Source: a virus (Duplodnaviria; Heunggongvirae; Uroviricota; Caudoviricetes). Taken from it: a stretch of DNA of 36,398 bases. Positions 1-36,080 of the stretch are shown piece after piece. The position numbers and the translations under genes are program-made. The stretch lies in IMG/VR virus record IMGVR_UViG_2537562173_000010; one strand, given 5' to 3'. The notes below the pieces were generated by a model. The model ran no database searches, was not told the DNA's origin, and saw nothing but the letters and a program-made list of their open reading frames with translations. How positions within the stretch are numbered: position 1 is the first letter of the stretch; each line of letters begins with the position of its first letter.

Positions 1-1215
1 TTATTTTTCAACCTCTGACAGGGGTAAGTAATGAGATGTCTGTAATGTCAAACTCTCTATCTCAAAGGAAATGTTGCTGATATTTTGACCTGCAAATTGC
101 GGATGCCACTCAGCGCCAGGGAATAACATTTCCGCAGAAGTAGCAACTATAGGGTCAATAGCATTAAGATAATGTAACTTATCAGGTGCGCTGTGTAACA
201 GTAACCACTGCAACTCCACTGAAGGATTTGTAAAATGTTCTAATAAATGAAAGTTATTATGTAGTACGCTTAGTAAAAAACTGGTTTCGTATACTTCCGT
301 TACATATTTCCACCCCTGATATTCAGGTGTATTTTCATAAACAATACCCATACCTTCACAATCACTATGTCGAACTGCTTGTGGTGATAATAGTTGCAAA
401 AGAGACAAAACATCGTCCGCATATTTTTTAACTGGATGACGATTTTGCTTACCTTTTATTTGATCAATTTCAAGTGAATCACCAACAACATTGAGAGCAA
501 TAGTAACATGAGGAATATTATTATTATCACGCAAACTGAATAACCGTAATTTATGTTGCTCAATTTGATTTGCATAATACTCACCATAACCACCGGTAAG
601 ATTTTTTCGATCATCAAACTGGCCTACGCAATGTTGCATATGCCATGATTCATAAGCCATTTCACGACGAAGGTTCGAATGACTGGCATCAAACTCAACA
701 ATTTTTCCGTCTGGCACATCAAGTATTGACTTTACAGTATTTTGTTCACTCGGCTGCCACCCTTTCTCGCGTCGTTGAAGCATCTTTTCATGCTCTTCTT
801 CACGCATTCTGAACGCAACGTAGCAGGTTATGCGCTGTAGTTTTGATTCCAGACGGGTACCACATTTCCTGGAAAGAAATTCCACCAACTCCCGTTCTTT
901 GGTTAATATTTGTTGATGATCGGTTTCGATATAATAAAGTGTCGCAGTTGATACTGAGGCAGTATTAAACTTCGATACCAGCCATTCCGGGATTACATCA
1001 TCATTTTTATTAAACAGTGAATATTCTGCAAGCGAGTTAATTTGTTGCACCATTGGAAAGTCACTAATTAGCCATCGATAAAAATGGTTGAGTAACCATT
1101 TTTGGATGGTCTCATTATCCTGGCGAAACAGACTTCTTTGCAAAATTGCTGTTTTTACTTCCGGGGCATTAATTACATCCCTTGCATTATAATTCTGGTG
1201 AATATTTCCAGTCAT
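1..1215 (-). CDS. hypothetical protein (404 aa), AT-rich, outside the prophage
   Basis: Complete minus-strand ORF (ATG 1213-1215, stop 1-3). Visibly AT-rich, unlike the adjacent yegQ. No motif I can assign with confidence. Confidence 0.6.
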   Translation of the reverse strand: MTGNIHQNYNARDVINAPEVKTAILQRSLFRQDNETIQKWLLNHFYRWLISDFPMVQQINSLAEYSLFNKNDDVIPEWLVSKFNTASVSTATLYYIETDHQQILTKERELVEFLSRKCGTRLESKLQRITCYVAFRMREEEHEKMLQRREKGWQPSEQNTVKSILDVPDGKIVEFDASHSNLRREMAYESWHMQHCVGQFDDRKNLTGGYGEYYANQIEQHKLRLFSLRDNNNIPHVTIALNVVGDSLEIDQIKGKQNRHPVKKYADDVLSLLQLLSPQAVRHSDCEGMGIVYENTPEYQGWKYVTEVYETSFLLSVLHNNFHLLEHFTNPSVELQWLLLHSAPDKLHYLNAIDPIVATSAEMLFPGAEWHPQFAGQNISNISFEIESLTLQTSHYLPLSEVEK

Positions 1216-1702
1216 AACATCCGCCCGTGTTTATTATATCACTCAAAGCAATAATTGTTGACTATAGATTTTTTATCTAAATCAGCATGGTTGCAGGTAC
1301 ATACTCAAGTAAGCCACTCAAGAAAATAACGTAAACTCAATAGTGGCAGCGTCACAAACTTTGGAAATTATGTCTTATATTTGCAGTTTATTTTAGTGAA
1401 TAATTGAGATAAATGACATTATTTTACATCCTCAATAATTCAGGCTGTAAGAGGACGGCAAATACATTCATAATTATCAGGGGATGAACATTCAGGAAAG
1501 TAGTCAGTATCGTCAACTTTTTCTTTTATCACTACATGAAGATTTCGTGTAGATACTCCCATCTCTGCCACTTCTCCCCTCACATTTACACTGGAGCTAA
1601 ACCCGCCGATTGCGCTACAATGCCCGCCCTTAAAGTGGGGGCACTCCCCTAACCGCTTCATCAGGTGAAGCGGCTCTGACCTGTCATCAGAACGAGAGAA
1701 TT

Positions 1703-3064
1703 ATGTTTAAACCGGAACTCCTTTCCCCGGCGGGAACGCTGAAAAATATGCGTTACGCTTTCGCTTATGGCGCAGATGCTGTTTATGCGGGCCAGCCGCG
1801 TTACTCCCTGCGTGTACGCAACAACGAATTCAACCACGAAAATCTTCAGCTCGGCATCAATGAAGCCCACGCGCTGGGGAAAAAGTTTTATGTCGTGGTC
1901 AACATTGCACCGCACAACGCCAAGCTGAAAACCTTTATCCGTGACCTGAAACCGGTGGTGGAAATGGGGCCGGATGCGCTGATTATGTCCGATCCAGGGC
2001 TGATTATGCTGGTGCGTGAACACTTCCCGGAAATGCCAATCCACCTCTCGGTACAGGCTAACGCCGTAAACTGGGCGACGGTGAAATTCTGGCAGCAAAT
2101 GGGTCTGACCCGCGTGATCCTCTCTCGCGAACTGTCACTGGAAGAGATTGAAGAGATCCGCAATCAGGTGCCGGATATGGAGATCGAAATCTTCGTTCAC
2201 GGCGCGCTGTGCATGGCCTACTCCGGTCGCTGCCTGCTCTCTGGCTATATCAACAAGCGCGACCCGAACCAGGGCACCTGCACCAACGCCTGCCGCTGGG
2301 AGTACAATGTCCAGGAAGGGAAAGAAGATGACGTCGGCAACATCGTACACAAGTACGAGCCGATTCCGGTGCAAAATGTTGAGCCGACGCTGGGTATCGG
2401 CGCGCCAACCGACAAAGTGTTTATGATCGAAGAAGCCCAGCGTCCGGGCGAGTATATGACCGCGTTTGAAGATGAGCACGGCACTTACATCATGAACTCG
2501 AAAGATCTGCGCGCCATCGCCCATGTTGAACGCCTGACCAAAATGGGCGTGCATTCGCTGAAAATCGAAGGCCGTACCAAATCTTTCTACTATTGCGCAC
2601 GCACCGCGCAGGTTTACCGTAAAGCTATCGATGACGCCGCTGCGGGCAAACCGTTCGATACCAGCCTGCTGGAAACGCTGGAAGGTCTGGCGCATCGTGG
2701 CTATACCGAAGGTTTCCTGCGTCGTCATACCCACGACGATTATCAGAACTACGAATACGGTTATTCGGTTTCTGACCGCCAGCAGTTTGTTGGTGAGTTT
2801 ACCGGTGAGCGCAAGGGGGAGCTCGCGGCGGTAGCGGTGAAAAATAAATTCTCCGTTGGCGACAGCCTTGAGCTGATGACGCCGCAAGGCAACATTAACT
2901 TTACCCTTGAGCATATGGAAAACGCCAAAGGTGAAGCGATGCCGGTCGCACCAGGCGATGGTTATACTGTGTGGCTCCCGGTGCCGCAGGATCTTGAGCT
3001 AAATTACGCGCTGCTGATGCGTAATTTCTCCGGGGAAACCACGCGTAACCCCCACGGTAAGTGA
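1703..3064 (+). CDS. yegQ: peptidase U32-family protein YegQ (TrhP-type tRNA hydroxylation protein)
   Basis: 453-aa ORF whose translation I recognise as E. coli YegQ. ATG at 1703 preceded by a purine-rich RBS-like stretch. Confidence 0.85.
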   Translation: MFKPELLSPAGTLKNMRYAFAYGADAVYAGQPRYSLRVRNNEFNHENLQLGINEAHALGKKFYVVVNIAPHNAKLKTFIRDLKPVVEMGPDALIMSDPGLIMLVREHFPEMPIHLSVQANAVNWATVKFWQQMGLTRVILSRELSLEEIEEIRNQVPDMEIEIFVHGALCMAYSGRCLLSGYINKRDPNQGTCTNACRWEYNVQEGKEDDVGNIVHKYEPIPVQNVEPTLGIGAPTDKVFMIEEAQRPGEYMTAFEDEHGTYIMNSKDLRAIAHVERLTKMGVHSLKIEGRTKSFYYCARTAQVYRKAIDDAAAGKPFDTSLLETLEGLAHRGYTEGFLRRHTHDDYQNYEYGYSVSDRQQFVGEFTGERKGELAAVAVKNKFSVGDSLELMTPQGNINFTLEHMENAKGEAMPVAPGDGYTVWLPVPQDLELNYALLMRNFSGETTRNPHGK

Positions 3065-3148
3065 TTAATTTCGATTATTTTTCCCGGATGGAAAATTCTT
3101 AGAAACCGATCACATACAGCTGCATTTATTAAGGTTATCATCCGTTTC

Positions 3149-3235
3149 GCTGAAAAACATAACCCATAAAATGCTAGCTGTACCAGGAACCACCTCCTTA
3201 GCCTGTGTAATCTCCCTTACGCAGGCTTATTTTTT
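3149..3235 (+). ncRNA. cyaR: CyaR (RyeE) Hfq-dependent small RNA
   Basis: Sequence GCTGAAAAACATAACCCATAAAATGCTAGCTGTACCAGGAACCACCTCCTTAGCCTGTGTAATCTCCCTTAC...GGCTTATTTTTT matches my recollection of E. coli cyaR. It ends in a hairpin (GCCTGTGTAA / TTACGCAGGC) followed by a T-run, and its 3' end overlaps attL. Confidence 0.8.
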
Positions 3236-3236
3236 A
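3209..3236. repeat. attL core (28-bp direct repeat, left prophage boundary)
   Basis: AATCTCCCTTACGCAGGCTTATTTTTTA at 3209-3236 recurs as AATCTCCCTTACACGGGCTTATTTTTTA at 35726-35753 (26/28 identical). The right copy matches the P2 attP core as I remember it. Confidence 0.75.
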
Positions 3237-3296
3237 CGCGTAACACAATGAAATAAAAGGATTTATTTCTGGTCACGTCCACACATTGACCACATC

Positions 3297-3324
3297 GACA
3301 AAAAAGCCCCTCGACTGAGGGGCT
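3297..3324 (-). terminator. rho-independent terminator downstream of ogr
   Basis: 8-bp perfect stem AGCCCCTC / GAGGGGCT (3305-3312 / 3317-3324) followed on the minus strand by a T-run (A-run 3299-3305 on plus). Confidence 0.6.
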
Positions 3325-3336
3325 TCCTGTTTGTAA

Positions 3337-8736: not shown

Positions 8737-9941
8737 CGGTCAGGCTCCTTATAATTGCTGTTAACCGAGGTGACCAGATTTGCCAGGTATTTATTGGTAA
8801 TACGCTGGCGCAGGGTCAGGTTTTCAAGAGGAGGCACCGGTGTATAGTCGTAGTCGATATACAGTTTTCCGGCCTTGAGGGTTTCCGCATCGTTGGATTC
8901 TTCGCTGAACCAGCAGGTCGCATCCACGATATAGCCGTTTGTTTTCAGCTCACGGAATTTGGCATTGATGCCGTCAACGATGTCGCGAATCAGCGTTGCG
9001 GTGATGGGCTTGTCCACCGCCCACATGTGCGCCTCAGCCATCGTGTCAGCCAGTACCTGCGCGGTGCGGGTGTAGTTTTCAAAGAGGAACAGCGGGTCAT
9101 CAGAGCAGGTACGGTTACCCCAGAATCGGAAACCGTCGCGGCGAATCAGCGTAGTGACGCCTGACTCGTTAAGCAGGTCAGCATCGGTGCCGGACTCCTG
9201 CAAATCCCAGAATACAGATGCGCTGATGCCGGTAACACCGTTTACCCCGACGTTGGACAGCGTTTTATGCCAGCCCTGCTCCTGGTCGATTTTAGCGCGC
9301 AGACCCAGCGCACGGGCGGTGGCATACGCGGTAGCGGTGGTACTGGTGACCGTATCCCATGCGAGGAAATCCGGCCAGATGACCATCAGCTCACGCTGGC
9401 TGAAATTCTGGCGGTAGGCTTTCACCTCGGAAATGGTCTTACAGCCCCATGCGCTGATATATCCGAAAGCGCGCAGCTTCTGACAGACGGATGCCAGTGC
9501 AACAGCCACCTCTTTGGTATCCAGTCCCGGCACACCGAGAATACGCGGTTTAACACCGGTTACCGACTCCGCCGCCAGCAGGGCTTTTAGTCCGGTGTAC
9601 TGACCGTTTTCGTCGGTGGTGCCGATGATATTGGAAACGGTCTGCGCGAGTTTCGTTTCCTCGTCATCACCGGTGCAGTCTTCCACGCGCACGACAACGG
9701 TGACCGGTTTTGACTGGTCAGCGATGGCCTGCAACGATGCCGCCAGCGTGCCTTTTTTACCGGCCTTTGCAATTGCGCTTTGCACATTGGTAATCAGCAC
9801 CGGTTTATTGAGGGGGAAGGTTTCCGCATCCGCATCGCTGGCCGTGCAGACCATGCCGACAATGGCAGTGGATACGGTGGAAATGACGCGGGTGCCGTCG
9901 TTAATCTCCAGCACCTGCACGCCATGATGATAGTCACTCAT
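8709..9941 (-). CDS. FI: contractile tail sheath protein FI
   Basis: 410 aa (MSDYHHGVQVLEINDGTRV...), sheath position upstream of FII. About 14 aa longer than my recollection of P2 FI. Confidence 0.85.
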   Translation of the reverse strand: MSDYHHGVQVLEINDGTRVISTVSTAIVGMVCTASDADAETFPLNKPVLITNVQSAIAKAGKKGTLAASLQAIADQSKPVTVVVRVEDCTGDDEETKLAQTVSNIIGTTDENGQYTGLKALLAAESVTGVKPRILGVPGLDTKEVAVALASVCQKLRAFGYISAWGCKTISEVKAYRQNFSQRELMVIWPDFLAWDTVTSTTATAYATARALGLRAKIDQEQGWHKTLSNVGVNGVTGISASVFWDLQESGTDADLLNESGVTTLIRRDGFRFWGNRTCSDDPLFLFENYTRTAQVLADTMAEAHMWAVDKPITATLIRDIVDGINAKFRELKTNGYIVDATCWFSEESNDAETLKAGKLYIDYDYTPVPPLENLTLRQRITNKYLANLVTSVNSNYKEPDRWQCRANSS

Positions 9942-17333: not shown

Positions 17334-17681
17334 TCAACTCACAGGGATGGTTAACGAAAGTGGCTGGCCGGTGTCGTTGTGCTGACCGGTTAACGTGACC
17401 GTCATTCGCCCGTCAAAACTGCGCTCAGTGGTGACGGATGACAGGGTGACGCGGGGTTCCCATTTCAGCACCGCCATGTAACAGGCGACCTTAATCTGCA
17501 ACTCAAGCGCCGGAGTCTGCGGCTGGTCAATCATTGACGCCAGCAACGAGCCGTAATCACGACGCATCACCCGCGAGCCGACCGGTGTGCGCAGGATATC
17601 GCCGATACTCTGGCTGATATGCTCAAGGTCAGTGACAGTCAGGCCATCACTGCGATTCATTCCGAGATAACGCGCAGTCAT
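17334..17681 (-). CDS. W: baseplate protein W
   Basis: 115 aa, the P2 gpW length. Its ATG overlaps the V stop (ATGA). Confidence 0.85.
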   Translation of the reverse strand: MTARYLGMNRSDGLTVTDLEHISQSIGDILRTPVGSRVMRRDYGSLLASMIDQPQTPALELQIKVACYMAVLKWEPRVTLSSVTTERSFDGRMTVTLTGQHNDTGQPLSLTIPVS

Positions 17682-17904
17682 AGAGGTCCCCCGGTTGTGC
17701 CGCCGCTGTCGCCGGGGTGTTTATGGGTATGCAGTACCTTACCGTTTGATGAGAGTTCACCGCCGGTGTGTTCAATGTTGCCGCGCATCGTCCCGCCCTT
17801 CTGCACTTCCAGCGTGCGTTAAGGTCGGTTTCGACGATAATGCCGGTGCGGATCATGTTGCGCAGTGCGCGCGCGAGTTCCTGAATATTTGCGAGAGTGT
17901 TCAT
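17678..17904 (-). pseudogene. V: baseplate spike protein V, internally deleted and frameshifted
   Basis: Only 227 nt between the V ATG (17902-17904) and the V stop (17678-17680), against about 636 nt expected. The first 30 codons are V-like (MNTLANIQELARALRNMIRTGIIVETDLNA). The last 44 codons, in another frame, read RTLEVQKGGTMRGNIEHTGGELSSNGKVLHTHKHPGDSGGTTGGPL. The frames differ by 1 at about 17815-17820. Confidence 0.7.
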
Positions 17905-17970: not shown

Positions 17971-18423
17971 CTAACGGTCGAGGTGAGCCAGGATAATCTC
18001 TTCAATCATCTGCACATCCTCACCGGTAAAGCCGAGCAGAGGACGCGCCGGATAATCAATTTTCTTACCGTCTTTCCGGTTTTCTTCCGACAGACCGAAC
18101 TGATGCACGCTGGCAATTTTCGGTGACTTCCCGCCGTAAAACTCCATTGATGCCTGTTCCGGGCTGGCGCGGATATGCAAAAAACGACTGGTGATAAGTT
18201 TCGCAAACATTTTTCGCTTAACGCGACCGGTCTTTTTTCTGGCGCTCTGCTGCTGGCGTGGTGCGTAGGGTGTGCCGTCCGGGGCTTTCTGTGCCATCAC
18301 CCGGCGCTGCTGACTCTGCCGCAGACGTTTCGCCAGTTCGGAGCTCAGTCGCCGACGCCCTGACGGTGACAGCGATTCAGTCAGTCCGGTCAGCCGGTCT
18401 TCAAAACGCTTAAACTCATTCAT
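17971..18423 (-). CDS. S: tail completion protein S
   Basis: 150 aa, the P2 gpS length and position. Confidence 0.85.
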   Translation of the reverse strand: MNEFKRFEDRLTGLTESLSPSGRRRLSSELAKRLRQSQQRRVMAQKAPDGTPYAPRQQQSARKKTGRVKRKMFAKLITSRFLHIRASPEQASMEFYGGKSPKIASVHQFGLSEENRKDGKKIDYPARPLLGFTGEDVQMIEEIILAHLDR

Positions 18424-24344: not shown

Positions 24345-25786
24345 ATGACCATCACCACAGACACCACTCTTTTACACGACCCGCGTCGTCAGGCGGCGCT
24401 GCTGTACTGGCAGGGATTTTCCGTGCCGCAGATTGCCGCCATGTTGCAGATGAAACGCCCGACAGTGCAGAGCTGGAAACAGCGCGACGGCTGGGACAAC
24501 GTTGCCCCCATCAGCCGTGTCGAAATGAGCCTGGAAGCGCGGCTGACCCAGCTCATCATCAAACCGCAGAAAACCGGCGGGGGGTTCAAGGAAATTGACC
24601 TGCTGGGACGCCAGATTGAACGACTGGCACGGGTAAATCGTTACAGCCAGACCGGCAACGAGGCAGACCTTAATCCGAACGTCGCTAACCGCAACAAAGG
24701 CGGGCGGCGCAAACCGAAAAAAAATTTTTTCAGTGACGAGGCCATCGAAAAGCTGGAGCAGATTTTCTTTGAGCAGTCTTTCGACTATCAGTTGCACTGG
24801 TATCGCGCCGGGCTTGAGCACCGCATCCGCGATATCCTGAAATCCCGCCAGATTGGCGCGACGTTTTATTTTTCCCGCGAGGCGCTGCTGCGCGCCCTGA
24901 AAACCGGCCATAACCAGATTTTTCTGTCGGCCAGTAAAACGCAGGCGTATGTGTTCCGCGAATACATCATCGCCTTTGCCCGGCTGGTTGACGTTGACCT
25001 GACCGGTGACCCGATTGTCCTGGGCAATAACGGCGCAAAACTGATTTTTCTCGGCACCAACTCCAACACCGCACAGAGCCATAACGGCGACCTGTACGTC
25101 GACGAGATTTTCTGGATCCCGAATTTTCAGGTACTGCGTAAGGTGGCATCAGGTATGGCCTCACAGAGTCACCTGCGCTCGACCTATTTCTCCACCCCGT
25201 CCACGCTGGCGCACGACGCCTACCCGTTCTGGTCAGGTGAACTGTTCAACCGGGGACGCGCCAGCGCCGCCGAACGCGTGGAAATCGACGTCAGTCATAA
25301 CGCCCTTGCCGGTGGGCTTCTCTGTGCGGACGGCCAGTGGCGGCAGATTGTCACCATTGAGGACGCCCTGAAAGGTGGCTGCACGCTGTTCGACATTGAA
25401 CAGCTCAAACGCGAAAACAGCGCCGACGATTTTAAAAACCTGTTCATGTGTGAATTTGTTGACGACAAGGCGTCGGTGTTCCCGTTCGAGGAGCTGCAAC
25501 GCTGCATGGTCGACACGCTGGAAGAATGGGAAGACTATGCGCCGTTTGCCGCCAATCCGTTCGGCTCCCGCCCGGTCTGGATTGGTTACGACCCGTCACA
25601 CCGTGGCGACAGCGCCGGATGAAGACCATGACCAGCAGCGGACGCAGCGCCACTTATGAGGCCAGCCGCAGCGAGGAAGCCAGCCACGCCGACCTCGCCT
25701 GGGCGACCATGCACGCCCTGTTAAATGAGCCACTCACCGCCGGTATCAGCACCCCGCTGACATCCACCATTCTGGAGTTTTACTGA
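24345..25786 (+). pseudogene. P: terminase large (ATPase) subunit P, internally deleted and frameshifted
   Basis: ATG 24345 (GAGG RBS) to the stop overlapping the Q start spans only 1442 nt, against about 1770 expected for 590-aa gpP. Reading frame breaks at about 25620 (...YDPSHRGDSAG*), and the C-terminal ...KTMTSSGRSATYEASRSEEASHADLAWATMHALLNEPLTAGISTPLTSTILEFY is in another frame. Confidence 0.65.
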
Positions 25787-27323: not shown

Positions 27324-27875
27324 ATGGAACTTAGATTAAAAAATGTTACCAGTTATAAGAAAGACGCCTTCACAATACTGAATCTTGAAAAAAGAGTAAA
27401 CATACTATACGGCCAAAATGGTTGTGGCAAATCTACCATTTCAAATTATTTCTACGACTCTACACACACAGATTATAACGAGTGTGAATGTACCCTTCTT
27501 GACAATTACAAACCTCTTGTTTACAACACTAAATTTATTGAAGATAACTTCTATAATGCACAGGAACAAAAAGGTGTTTTTACATTAAGTAAAGAAAATG
27601 CAGATATTGAAAAACAATTAATTGAAAAAGAAGCAATTAAACAGCAACTCACAGAGCAATATAGACAAAAAAAAGGAGTGTTATTGAAATTAGAAGCAGA
27701 AATGGAAAAAAAAGAAAATGAATACATCGAATCGATCTGGAAAAAAACAGAACCAATCAGAAACTCTGTACTAAAAACCTTAATGAAAGGTAAAGTTGGC
27801 TATAAAAGACCTTTTTTTGAGATGATAAAATCATCCTCACCAATCACCTTTATTAATTTAAATGATATATATTAA
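27324..27875 (+). CDS. N-terminal fragment (183 aa) of a split Rad50/SMC-like ABC ATPase
   Basis: Walker A GQNGCGKST (codons 30-38, 27411-27437), then coiled-coil-like K/E-rich sequence. GAGG RBS 7 nt upstream of the ATG. Ends ...SPITFINLNDIY* inside the 19-bp duplication. AT-rich. Confidence 0.7.
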   Translation: MELRLKNVTSYKKDAFTILNLEKRVNILYGQNGCGKSTISNYFYDSTHTDYNECECTLLDNYKPLVYNTKFIEDNFYNAQEQKGVFTLSKENADIEKQLIEKEAIKQQLTEQYRQKKGVLLKLEAEMEKKENEYIESIWKKTEPIRNSVLKTLMKGKVGYKRPFFEMIKSSSPITFINLNDIY

Positions 27876-27889
27876 TTTAAATGATATAG
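27852..27889 (+). repeat. exact 19-bp tandem duplication at the junction of the two ATPase ORFs
   Basis: ATTAATTTAAATGATATAT (27852-27870) followed by ATTAATTTAAATGATATAG (27871-27889), 18/19 identical. Removing one unit fuses the two ORFs in frame (...SPITF-INLNDIAKEY...). Confidence 0.85.
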
Positions 27890-29559
27890 CAAAAGAATAC
27901 TCTATACTATTAGAAAATAGAAACAATGAAACCGCATTAATAACTCCTTTACATCCATATACCCCATCAATTGATGATGTAAATACATTAGCAACACCTA
28001 TAATAGATACAAGCAATAGCTATTTATCAGAAACCATTAATAAACTTCATAATCTTGACTGGGTAAAAAAAGGTAAAGAACATTATTTAGACGGTTCTAC
28101 ATGTCCGTTTTGTCAGGAAAAAACTATTAGTCACGAATTTTTAAATGCCCTTAAATCAATATTTGACGAAAGTTATTCAAAGAAAGTAAAACAGCTCTCA
28201 GATATAAAGTCAGTTTATGAGAAAAATACCATATATCATTTTAACGAAATACAAAACAATATATCATCATGTGCACTAATCAATGAGAAAGATAAAGAGA
28301 ACATTATTTCCAATATTAAAATATTGCAAAACATTGCAGAAAAAAATTTAATAAACATTATTGATAAGATCAACAATCCATCAACATGCGTTACATTAGA
28401 AATTGATAAAGAACTAGAAAATCATGTTCAGGAAAGCATAGGCGCTGTTAACAAGAAAATAAGAGACATAAATGATAAGGTTAAAAAACTCAAAGAGTAT
28501 GAGAATAAAATCGGAAAACAAGTTTGGGGGGCTCTCCATGCTTTTTGCAGCGATGATTTAGAGAATTTATCCAAACACAAAGAAAAATTCTTTGATATCA
28601 AAAAGAAAGTTCATGATGAATTAAATAATATTGAGCAACAAGGAAAAGAAAATAATCTCACAATAAAAGCATTGCGAGATAAAATATCTAACATTGATTC
28701 TACGATAGACTCAATAAACACCCATTTAAAAAATCTAGGGATCTCTGGTTTTTGTATTGAAAAACATGCAGAAAGAAAAGATATGTACATTATATCTCGA
28801 CCAGGGCATACAAAAAACCAAAATGTTTATAGATCTCTTAGCGAAGGTGAAAAAACACTAATAACGTTTCTTTATTTTTTAGAGTGCTGTAAAGGTAAAA
28901 CCGATAAAAATGATACCGATAGCAGGGATATTTTTATTGTTATTGACGATCCAATATCTAGTCTATCGCAAAACTATGTCTACGACATCGCATCAATTAT
29001 TCATCACCACATTATAAAAAATGAATTAACAAAGAAGGTATTAATCCTTACTCACAATCTTTATTTCTTTCATGAACTTATTAAGCTATCTCCTAAAAGC
29101 AGAGAAGACAAACTATTTAAGAAAAACTATTATCTAGGTAGAGTAACGAAAAATGATTTTAGTATAATTACTGAAATACAAAAAAACAGCATACAGAATG
29201 AATATCAATCTTTGTGGCAAATATTAAAAGATGCAAAAGATGGCAAAGCAAACAAAATCATAATACCGAATATTATGAGAAACATACTAGAATATTATTT
29301 TGCATTTGTTCATAGAACAGATGCTCTACAAGATGAATTAACAAAGTTGGCACGCGACGATAGCAACAGTGATTTCAAAGCATTCTACAGATACATTAAC
29401 AGAGGTTCTCACTCTGATGCGGTAAATATTACTGATATGGGCGACATAGACCCAGATAAATACCTAAAACAATTGAGAACAATATTTTCAGCTACTGGTG
29501 ACGAAATGCATTATTTAAAAATGATGGACGAACTAGAAGAGGAAAACGTTACCGCTTAG
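27862..29559 (+). CDS. C-terminal fragment (565 aa) of the split Rad50/SMC-like ABC ATPase, with a possible HEPN-like C-terminal domain
   Basis: CPFC (28102-28113) within the coiled-coil region; ABC signature-like LSEGEK; Walker B DIFIVIDDP with D-loop SSLS; H-loop LILTHN. The C-terminal 170 aa contain R-x3-E (RNILE) and RYINRGSH. AT-rich. Confidence 0.7.
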   Translation: MIYINLNDIAKEYSILLENRNNETALITPLHPYTPSIDDVNTLATPIIDTSNSYLSETINKLHNLDWVKKGKEHYLDGSTCPFCQEKTISHEFLNALKSIFDESYSKKVKQLSDIKSVYEKNTIYHFNEIQNNISSCALINEKDKENIISNIKILQNIAEKNLINIIDKINNPSTCVTLEIDKELENHVQESIGAVNKKIRDINDKVKKLKEYENKIGKQVWGALHAFCSDDLENLSKHKEKFFDIKKKVHDELNNIEQQGKENNLTIKALRDKISNIDSTIDSINTHLKNLGISGFCIEKHAERKDMYIISRPGHTKNQNVYRSLSEGEKTLITFLYFLECCKGKTDKNDTDSRDIFIVIDDPISSLSQNYVYDIASIIHHHIIKNELTKKVLILTHNLYFFHELIKLSPKSREDKLFKKNYYLGRVTKNDFSIITEIQKNSIQNEYQSLWQILKDAKDGKANKIIIPNIMRNILEYYFAFVHRTDALQDELTKLARDDSNSDFKAFYRYINRGSHSDAVNITDMGDIDPDKYLKQLRTIFSATGDEMHYLKMMDELEEENVTA

Positions 29560-29782: not shown

Positions 29783-32116
29783 TCAAACACAGAAAAAATC
29801 AAAGCGCCCTATGAATCCCCCCCAACCATCAGCGACCGGATACGTGAATTTTTTCCCGTCATAATTTACGGTCGCTCCACGCGCCAGCGCCTCAAGCTCC
29901 CATCGCTGCGGCATGATACCGTTCTGAGCAAGGTCAACGCGGATACGGGTGATTTGCAATCGTTCAGACCTGGTCAGTCTGGCAGATGGTGCAATTTCAT
30001 GCGGTTTTAACGGGCTTCCGTTTCTTTGCTGACGGTTTGGCGTTCTCAGGTCGTATTTTAATGCGCCCCTGAGCGCCCTCACGACCTCCGGTTCATTCCA
30101 TTCAATAACACCGTCATCAACCAGATTAAGCACTGCTGCGGCGTGCTCAGAAGGTGTGGGAGCCGGTAACGAAGTATCACCACCGGTGAGCTTTCCACAG
30201 TTATTGACAGGACTCCGAGGCGCGGCGATGCCGCTTTTTAAAGTCAAAGGCTCAACGACCGGAACTTTCGGCACAATGCGCCAGTCCGTCGTTCTGGTGA
30301 TATGAATATGACGCGCGCCGAGATGCGGCGCGTAAATGCCGACCACTCTCTCGACTTCTTCCTCGTACTCGTTAACGTCATCCGACGGGCTACGGGCAAC
30401 CCTGACAGTCTGACAATCGCGCGGGACATTTGCCCCCCCCTGCGCGCTGATATACAACGCAAAATCACCACTGTCTGCGGCAGCGCGAGCAGCCTCGACG
30501 CGTTCGTCAAACTCATCAGCAATACTGACGCCGCGAGGCAATTTGCGTAGTTCACGGTAAGCCCCCATTGTCGGCAGGCCAACCGTTTTAAATTGCGGAA
30601 TTCGCCACGTTGACGCCCATGCGGTAACAGCCGCAGCAGTATCTTTCAGCGGCCTGCCGGTATCATTATCGAGCTGACCATCCAGTGCATAGCCATCGAT
30701 GTTTTTTGAGATGTATTTTGCGATATACCCCGCAGCACCGCCCCGGTTAAGATGTTTTGCCTGAAAACGGTTTCGCGCGGCTCCTCTTTCGTCGCCATCC
30801 TCTTTGAGCGCATAGCGACGCATGATTTCGATAATCTGGTTACGCTGGCGTGGATTACAAAAAAGCATCATATGCCAGTGCGGCGTTCCGTCGTGGTGTG
30901 GCTCGACGACACGCAAACCGTAGACCTGTAAATCATTATCCTTGAATGCCGTGCGCATCAGGCTCCAGATATGGCAGAGATAACGCTGCGCATCCTTTGG
31001 ATTAAATGCCTCATCGTTCCAGCCGTGATTTAGCTGGACGGTTTTACTTTCGCCTTTTCCGACCTGACGTGTCGGGTGATACTTTGACGGCGCGGTAAGC
31101 GTGATAAACATCCCCACATCACCCTCTGCGGCGGCGTAACGCTCAATACCGGCAATGGTGTTCATCAGCTCCATCCGGCGAATTTCAGGATTAGAAATAC
31201 TGCCCATCACCTTACTGATAAGGTCGATGCGTTCGCCGGTTTCCCTGTTTTCAAGGTCACACGATTTAAGAAATTCCAGATTTGCCTGGCGGCGTGCACG
31301 CACATCACGAATGGCATGTTTACTGGCATAAGGTGAACGGTCTTTATTGACCTCCCCGACAGCAATCAGTAACGCCTCATGCCAGCGCATACGCTGGCCT
31401 TTAAGCTGACTAATCCACCACTCATCGTTAAACAGGCGGGCAATGGCAGAATATGCCTGCCTCGTGGTCATCTGTCCTTTACGGTATTTTTTCCAGTAGA
31501 GCGGGGAAATATTGAAAGCACGTGCAGCGCCAGCAACATGACCATAGAGGTGAGCCTGCGCCTCATCCGTAAACAGCGATTCTTTTTCGCCATGCGCATC
31601 CACCCAGGCATCGCAGAGTTCCTCATACATCATGAAAAGCTGCGATGAGATACGGGCGGCAAACTTTTTCAGCTCCTTATCATTCATCCCCGGCAGACGC
31701 GCATAATGGTCACGCTCTGCCAGAAACAGCAACGACGCGTCGGTGTTCATTTCATGGCGCTGATTCACACGCTCAATGCGCGGCCATAAACGACGCTGAA
31801 AAGTGGATGTGAGGAAATAAAACCCGTGCACCGGGCTTTTATTGCGCCGGATGTAGTCATAGCGTGAAGTAAACAGCGAGCGCAAAAAGTAAGGCAGGCG
31901 GTTAATCGTGGATAAAACACCTTGCACCTGACGCATCTCGTCACGTGTAAGGGGTCTTTCGCGCCCGACGGCCTCGCGTGGCGCGTTCCATGCATAAGCA
32001 CCGGTAAACGTCTTACCGGTGCCTGCGGTAAATGCTGACGGAGGGACAAAACGCCCGGAGGCTTTAACGGCCATATGAGCCAAAAGCCTCTGAACAACGC
32101 TTGCTGAGTTGCTCAA
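29783..32116 (-). CDS. A: replication initiation protein A (rolling-circle nickase)
   Basis: 777 aa in the P2 gpA position (P2 gpA is about 761 aa from memory); large basic protein adjacent to the early-operon ORFs. Confidence 0.85.
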   Translation of the reverse strand: MSNSASVVQRLLAHMAVKASGRFVPPSAFTAGTGKTFTGAYAWNAPREAVGRERPLTRDEMRQVQGVLSTINRLPYFLRSLFTSRYDYIRRNKSPVHGFYFLTSTFQRRLWPRIERVNQRHEMNTDASLLFLAERDHYARLPGMNDKELKKFAARISSQLFMMYEELCDAWVDAHGEKESLFTDEAQAHLYGHVAGAARAFNISPLYWKKYRKGQMTTRQAYSAIARLFNDEWWISQLKGQRMRWHEALLIAVGEVNKDRSPYASKHAIRDVRARRQANLEFLKSCDLENRETGERIDLISKVMGSISNPEIRRMELMNTIAGIERYAAAEGDVGMFITLTAPSKYHPTRQVGKGESKTVQLNHGWNDEAFNPKDAQRYLCHIWSLMRTAFKDNDLQVYGLRVVEPHHDGTPHWHMMLFCNPRQRNQIIEIMRRYALKEDGDERGAARNRFQAKHLNRGGAAGYIAKYISKNIDGYALDGQLDNDTGRPLKDTAAAVTAWASTWRIPQFKTVGLPTMGAYRELRKLPRGVSIADEFDERVEAARAAADSGDFALYISAQGGANVPRDCQTVRVARSPSDDVNEYEEEVERVVGIYAPHLGARHIHITRTTDWRIVPKVPVVEPLTLKSGIAAPRSPVNNCGKLTGGDTSLPAPTPSEHAAAVLNLVDDGVIEWNEPEVVRALRGALKYDLRTPNRQQRNGSPLKPHEIAPSARLTRSERLQITRIRVDLAQNGIMPQRWELEALARGATVNYDGKKFTYPVADGWGGFIGRFDFFCV

Positions 32117-35725: not shown

Positions 35726-35753
35726 AATCTCCCTTACACGGGCTTATTTTTTA
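35726..35753. repeat. attR core (28-bp direct repeat, right prophage boundary)
   Basis: AATCTCCCTTACACGGGCTTATTTTTTA; its reverse complement matches the P2 attP core AAAAAATAAGCCCGTGTAAGGGAGATT as I recall it. Confidence 0.75.
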
Positions 35754-36080
35754 TGCATAAGCCCTATCCCTGGTCACCGTCTTCCATTGACCACATCGAT
35801 AGAATCCTCCTTCATAGCACGATGCTTTTCACTTATCGACATCGTGCTCGCACAGGTTCCGGTTACGCACAGCCAGAACGCGCATGTTTGACGCTTACCA
35901 AAAAATGAACCTAAAGCATTGGAACATTTTTGACATCATTTTCTGATGGCTGCATAAAATAAAAATTCTGCTTTAGTTTCATCTATCTGTTTGTCATTAT
36001 TACTCACATTCAATAATGGTGTTGAAGAATATCCCATCACAGATAAAATAAATATGTGCATGGTAGTCTTGAATCTATTC

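Follow-up and report, generated by a model that had tools for sequence, protein, structure and literature searches.

A 409-nt gap in the spike gene V of a P2-like Escherichia coli prophage is probably an error of a draft assembly

The stretch of DNA analysed here (the window, 36,398 nt) contains a P2-like prophage that extends approximately from position 3209 to position 35804 and lies between trhP/yegQ and yegR. It is bounded by imperfect direct repeats resembling att sites (3209–3303 and 35726–35804) and carries the P2 gene set, namely Q, P, O, N, M, L, X, Y, K, lysA/B/C, R, S, V, W, J, I, H, G, FI, FII, E, T, U, D and ogr, together with int, C, cox, B and A. The assignment was made from the annotation of collinear relatives and from Pfam marks on the source contig, and the collinear gene set and the att-like repeats place the element among the P2-like (Peduovirus) prophages. 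The tail genes are on the minus strand of the window. As deposited, the sequence is not that of a functional plaque-forming phage, V and the terminase gene P both being broken.

Our main subject is the region of the tail genes S, V and W. Gene S (17971..18423, minus strand), which encodes the tail completion or virion morphogenesis protein of 150 amino acids, is intact and without difference from its relatives, and so is the S–V intergenic region. Gene W (17334..17681, minus strand), which encodes the gp25-like baseplate wedge protein of 115 amino acids, is intact as well. Between them, the V start codon (ATG at 17904) and the V stop codon (TGA at 17680–17678) are separated by 227 nt from start to stop, and the stop codon overlaps the ATG of W (17681–17679) as ATGA. 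An intact V is 636 nt long in P2-like phages and in the nearest E. coli prophages. When the remnant is aligned to the 636-nt V of phage pro483 and of APEC E16002, whose chromosome is the closest relative, the difference consists of a single gap of 409 nt, which corresponds to V nucleotides 88/90 to 496/498 and to positions about 29818–30226 of the E16002 locus (L002). The junction lies at 17816–17817, where 2 nt (GC) can be assigned to either side, and reads CCTTAACGCACGCTGG. The 5′ remnant (17818..17904, minus strand) comprises V nucleotides 1–87, that is codons 1–29, or residues 1–30 with the junction bases, and is identical to pro483 and E16002. The 3′ remnant (17678..17815, minus strand) comprises V nucleotides 499–636, which encode T167–L211 and the stop codon and include the end of the beta-helix and the HTHKH apex.

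Since 409 = 3 × 136 + 1, the two ends of V are out of frame with each other. The open reading frame that begins at the V start (17647..17904, minus strand, 85 amino acids) consists of 30 gpV residues (MNTLANIQELARALRNMIRTGIIVETDLNA) followed by 55 out-of-frame residues, and stops at 17647, 32 nt inside W. Downstream of the junction the original frame retains 45 codons (T167–L211), HTHKH included. A preliminary description of this DNA had proposed that S and W are full length, that V is reduced to 227 nt by an internal out-of-frame deletion of about 410 nt with its stop overlapping the W ATG, and that the first 30 and last 44 codons are V-like and lie in different frames. The alignment bears this out, with a single internal deletion of 409 nt that shifts the frame, except that the 3′ part holds 45 V codons and not 44.

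Both flanks of the gap are 100% identical to intact relatives, and the two remnants are about 98% identical to phage pro483. The nucleotide homology and the conserved order S-V-W-J-I-H-G indicate descent from gene V and argue that the resemblance of the remnant to this gene is not due to chance. The comparison with P2 gpV that had been suggested at the outset agrees with this, the intact V of the relatives matching P2 gpV (PDB 3QR8) over residues 1–211 with E=6e-135. In an intact relative, Pfam recognizes the OB-fold domain Phage_base_V (PF04717) at residues about 19–86 with 70 bits. This domain, a hallmark of gpV-type spikes, is missing from the window, codons 31–166 being deleted, and there is no unbroken open reading frame of about 211 codons between S and W, as a spike of this type would have. 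The 85-aa frame from the V start has no Pfam match. What remains of the C-terminal part of the spike, namely the last 21 of the 53 positions of Phage_spike (PF18715) and the Apex HxH motif (PF18946), is in a frame that cannot be reached from the V start. It is contained in a 42-aa open reading frame (17678–17806) that begins with GTG inside the old V and that matches Phage_spike positions 33–53 of 53 (E=2.9e-7) and Apex (E=5.6e-5), both matches passing the Pfam thresholds.

The shortened arrangement was searched for in other genomes. A 111-nt query across the junction was unable to distinguish matches in one piece from matches in two pieces, and 50-mers were used instead, each half of which is shorter than the 28-nt megablast word, so that seeding requires a true junction; as a control, the V-junction 50-mer finds itself with the low-complexity filter on. 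Megablast with this 50-mer matched none of 5,426 complete E. coli genomes and none of 50,697 phage records, and an exact search found no copy of the junction in GTDB representative genomes, viral contigs or metagenome contigs. Likewise, the 85-aa frameshift product has no exact-protein record in the public collection. The S-V-W stretch itself is common, being present in about 1,600 of the 5,426 complete E. coli genomes and matched by 96 phage records, nearly all of them named P2-like. Among the 40 E. coli matches listed, all are full-span, and in these and the listed phage matches the S-V-W span is 1,610 nt, compared to 1,201 nt in the window. Five of the 40 are complete genomes with an intact V that are 100% identical to the window over the S-V-W stretch on both sides of the gap. 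As far as these sequence comparisons reach, the V deletion is private to one deposited sequence.

Comparison of the whole window with E16002 disclosed further lesions in the same prophage. The gene P for the terminase ATPase (24345..25622, plus strand) is truncated to 425 of 590 codons by a 331-nt deletion at 25621|25622. The join is blunt and shows no microhomology, a TGA is made at the junction, and according to Pfam the truncated product contains Terminase_5 and Terminase_6N only, everything past Terminase_6N being lost. At 27851..27888 (plus strand) there is a perfect 19-nt tandem duplication (TATTAATTTAAATGATATA, twice), which causes a frameshift in the gene of a 738-aa AAA ATPase and splits it into open reading frames of 183 and 565 amino acids. 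For both of these junctions the corresponding 50-mer has no match in the 5,426 complete E. coli genomes, the self-match control having been run for the duplication. The duplication resembles an unmerged overlap between contigs.

The ATPase gene (27324–29559, plus strand) is a cargo gene that follows the portal gene Q, the position of the old/tin region in P2, and lies in an island of 28–30% GC. Its product is a strong match (E=5e-254) to PDC-S06, a PADLOC candidate single-gene defence system, and has in addition a weaker PrrC-like match at the C-terminus. An intact copy is found in E16002 (L002, 40064–42280). In the E. coli type strain ATCC 11775 (NZ_CP033092.2) the PDC-S06 ATPase gene at the yegQ site is interrupted by the IS21-family element ISEc12, and this is a genuine and independently documented inactivation of the cargo gene. 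A second segment that is not found in P2 (10260–12205) is located between the sheath gene FI and the tail-fibre assembly gene G, the Z/fun position of P2; it encodes a 125-aa hypothetical protein, a short (194-aa) tyrosine recombinase and a DUF5677 protein, has no PADLOC match, and is kept in all relatives at the yegQ site.

The origin of the sequence bears on how these lesions should be read. The truncated P, the 565-aa ATPase fragment and a variant RepB-like protein have exact-protein matches only in GCA_000233675.2, contig AEYT01000028.1. AEYT00000000 is the draft genome of the E. coli clone A isolate i1, a urinary isolate of ST95 (PMC3203180). The draft was produced in 2011 from paired-end Illumina GA IIx reads and consists of 56 scaffolds and 79 contigs with no finishing described, finishing or PCR checking in the same study being limited to the clone D genomes; APEC O1 is described there as very similar to i1 (PMC3203180). 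Other paired-end libraries of the same laboratory had inserts of 300–700 bp.

Small differences elsewhere in the prophage also bear on the nature of the gap. This prophage occupies the same site in four independent complete genomes (Korea, the USA and China), among which 2–7 substitutions separate any two over 37 kb; these substitutions comprise 7 transitions and 1 transversion. The window has 21 substitutions that are carried by none of the four, in addition to the 3 indels. The change at 8795 is a natural polymorphism present in many genomes; the remaining 20, located between 10901 and 34334, are unseen in close relatives and have an error-like context and spectrum, and for 15 of them a search of all complete E. 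coli genomes or of the exact-protein index found no copy. With 8795 excluded, 19 of the 20 substitutions are in coding sequence, and 14 of these 19 are nonsynonymous. Transitions account for 8 of the 20, compared to 70% of the natural differences between two P2-like prophages (p=0.006), and the new base is the same as the preceding plus-strand base in 11 of 20 cases (55%), compared to 19% of the natural differences (p=5e-4). Examples of such copying are GGTGAC>GGGGGG at 24579–24584 and CCCCACCC>CCCCCCCC at 30437; a further private change, CCCGTAGC>CCCCGAGC, amounts effectively to the gain of a C and the loss of a T. The private substitutions give rise to unique 'variant' database proteins of LysA, Y, X, M, N, P and the RepB-like protein.

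Nakamura et al. (2011, PMC3141275) found that 49–64% of the sequence-specific errors of the Illumina Genome Analyzer repeat the base just before them, with T>G, A>C and G<>C changes in excess, and that these errors lead to dips in coverage and to gaps in assemblies. In the present contig the differences with this platform-typical pattern are confined to the stretch of an unfinished assembly that contains the lesions. Positions 1–3336 of the window hold no private change, a segment of 9,141 nt on this contig, which includes the integrase gene and 8 kb of host sequence lying outside the window, is 100.000% identical to E16002, and the host flank, about 12 kb in all, is identical to E16002. Poor quality of the draft genome-wide was considered as a cause and is ruled out for this 12 kb host flank with its 0 differences from E16002. 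We also considered that the substitutions had been acquired by recombination with another P2-like phage and rejected this, because an import would bring selected alleles that are seen elsewhere, and the private substitutions, which are mostly nonsynonymous, occur in none of about 1,800 copies found in complete genomes.

Taken together, the sequence comparisons lead us to consider it probable that the 409 nt were lost from V through a local error in the draft assembly AEYT01000028.1, and that the bacterium itself does not carry the lesion. Ordinary descent cannot plausibly account for some 20 unselected substitutions together with two deletions and a duplication in 24 kb between unchanged flanks, and we infer that the indels share a cause with the substitutions. 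A possible sequence of events is that reads over part of the prophage were few or poor and that contigs broke there; scaffolding or gap closing would later have joined the broken contigs and left the missing sequence out. Joins over true gaps would have made V too short by 409 nt and P by 331 nt, and the join of two ends that truly overlapped would have produced the 19-nt tandem duplication, while the substitutions would be base-call errors admitted to a poorly supported consensus. Gaps of 409 and 331 nt are within the reach of inserts of 300–700 bp, and read pairs could therefore have bridged both. If this is correct, the real strain i1 probably has the intact 636-nt V of the relatives. Since PMC3203180 names no assembler, the mechanism of joining is offered as a conjecture.

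The base composition of the affected sites fits this mechanism in part. The segment missing from V has the highest GC content of any 400-nt stretch in the prophage (62.8% GC, 99.8th percentile) and the 19-nt duplication is in its most AT-rich part, where GC is 28–30%; a coverage bias may be expected at these sites because library bias lowers coverage at both GC extremes. The missing P segment is unremarkable in composition (57% GC, 76th percentile), which counts against an assembly error, and so does the fact that 62.8% GC is not extreme for Illumina sequencing. Several other observations argue in the same direction. There are no Ns at any of the three indel sites, real deletions in prophage genes are common, a 2-nt microhomology is typical of real illegitimate recombination, and the confinement of the differences to about 24 kb of the prophage calls for an explanation, for which a second P2-like prophage is the obvious suspect, but no APEC O1-type alleles are present at the sites checked.

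The principal alternative is that the deletion is real, and that illegitimate recombination at the 2-nt GC microhomology removed 409 nt in i1, with loss of residues 31–166 and a shift of the frame, so that no central baseplate spike would be left. Its merits are that the deposited contig is continuous at the site, that both flanks are error-free for hundreds of bases, and that junctions with microhomology are typical of real deletions. Prophage decay through small deletions is well known. Were the sequence right, the OB domain (residues 19–86) and most of the beta-helix would certainly be lost from a protein that is essential in P2. Against it stand the restriction of the lesion to one unfinished draft, the absence of the truncated products from any second isolate or independent assembly, and the need for three independent private indels and about 20 substitutions with the pattern of errors in 24 kb while 12 kb of flanking sequence remained unchanged. 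We therefore regard a genuine deletion as rather unlikely, and we are equally doubtful of its corollary that, with P truncated too, this is a P2-like prophage which was inactivated recently, by several lesions, and no longer propagates.

Should the deletion nevertheless be real, the V allele would be null, with the OB domain and most of the beta-helix removed, and there would be no working terminase. Because the S–V intergenic region is the same as in the relatives, we infer that W-J-I-H-G could still be expressed. A uropathogenic ST95 strain would then hold a further defective P2-like prophage, a case of ordinary decay and not a new kind of element. The preliminary description had concluded, from the essential role of gpV in P2, that the prophage should not make infectious particles unless complemented. 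The premise is sound, as a P2 V amber mutant (Gln9am) fails to grow on a host without a suppressor (bioRxiv 10.1101/2023.02.25.529910). The conclusion holds for the sequence as written, in which V is null, but a defect founded on V is insecure, an assembly error, which that description had itself named as a refuting case, being better supported; furthermore, V alone would not rescue the prophage, the terminase gene P being truncated as well, and rescue could come only from a co-resident or superinfecting P2-like helper that supplies both V and P. The same description had recommended induction with mitomycin C as a check. P2-type prophages with a P2-like C repressor are not known to be SOS-inducible, and consequently this test is ill-suited to the question.

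A third possibility takes all of the differences at face value and attributes them to a localised burst of mutagenesis over about 24 kb of one prophage, the flanking chromosome remaining unchanged. We find this very improbable. At least 19 mostly nonsynonymous substitutions that tend to copy a neighbouring base, similar to the dislocation errors of an error-prone polymerase, would have had to arise along with two deletions and a tandem duplication; error-prone replication or repair during an abortive induction is a possible cause. If such a burst did take place, the window would be a snapshot of very rapid prophage inactivation.

It is also very improbable that the contig is a chimeric assembly of the yegQ-site prophage and an APEC O1-type prophage at pflA/pflB, in which the collapse of repeats produced the gaps. 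Many ST95 genomes contain 2–3 P2-like prophages, the pflA/pflB prophage of APEC O1 shares 97.7% identity over 19 kb, and both the deletion in P and the duplication fall within a 6.3-kb stretch that is virtually identical between the two prophage types. However, the 409-nt V segment contains 21 sites that differ between the types, an overlap of 2 nt at the junction falls far below what a de Bruijn collapse would need, and the window has the APEC O1 allele at only 1 of 19 comparable differences from E16002 (27649), an allele that occurs in other yegQ-site prophages too. The ends of the deletion appear to match the ends of a cluster of differences between the prophages, which is not special, such differences occurring about every 45 nt throughout. 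Restriction and religation was considered as well, there being BsrFI-type RCCGGY sites at both ends of the segment, but was rejected since the junction is AACGCACGC and not the expected CCGG. Finally, a naturally short functional V, in which the 227-nt gene or the 42-aa apex frame would serve as a variant spike, has next to no probability: this case, named in advance as one of two that would overturn the deletion, is effectively refuted by the survey (0 of 50,697 phage records and 0 of 5,426 E. coli genomes), the halves are out of frame, the OB domain that caps the tube or hub in gpV-type spikes is gone, and the 42-aa frame, for all that it retains the apex HxH and passes the Pfam thresholds for Phage_spike and Apex, begins with a GTG inside the old gene.

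The preferred reading, an error of assembly, has a practical side. Calls of pseudogenes or of a 'defective prophage' that are based on early short-read drafts can be assembly errors, and contig AEYT01000028.1 appears to be a case in point, with at least 3 frame-breaking indels and about 20 putative miscalls within 24 kb. Its products have entered the public protein collections as a unique 42-aa V fragment, a 425-aa terminase and a split PDC-S06 ATPase.

Among known systems, the remnant is best likened to the central spike protein gpV of P2 (PDB 3QR8 for the full length, 3QR7 and 3AQJ for the C-terminal part; Phage_base_V, Phage_spike and Apex). It is like P2 gpV in that it lies within a collinear P2 late operon, flanked by S and W, and in its first 30 and last 45 codons, the iron-binding HTHKH apex included. 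Unlike P2 gpV, it is without residues 31–166, the OB domain and most of the beta-helix, and no gpV could be made from the window as written. At the level of the whole element, the intact P2-like prophages at trhP(yegQ)/yegR of ST95-type E. coli, such as those of APEC E16002 (NZ_CP126944.1, 1976000–2009100), FDAARGOS_1298, SF-468 and HS13-1, have the same site, gene order and cargo, with 99.8–99.99% identity to the window per aligned block and identical host flanks, whereas the window alone has the 409-nt gap in V, the 331-nt gap in P, the 19-nt duplication and about 20 substitutions. In APEC O1 (NC_008563.1, 915000–962000) the P2-like prophage is at pflA/pflB instead of yegQ; it is virtually identical to the yegQ-site type over the 6.3 kb of P-Q-ATPase-A, and its sheath gene is interrupted by ISEc12. 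The private differences of the window are in turn like the errors of Illumina GA drafts (PMC3141275), in that the proportion copying the preceding base, 55%, is inside the range of 49–64%, extensions of G or C runs and transversions are both in excess, indels co-localise with substitutions, and the platform and date of the source assembly fit.
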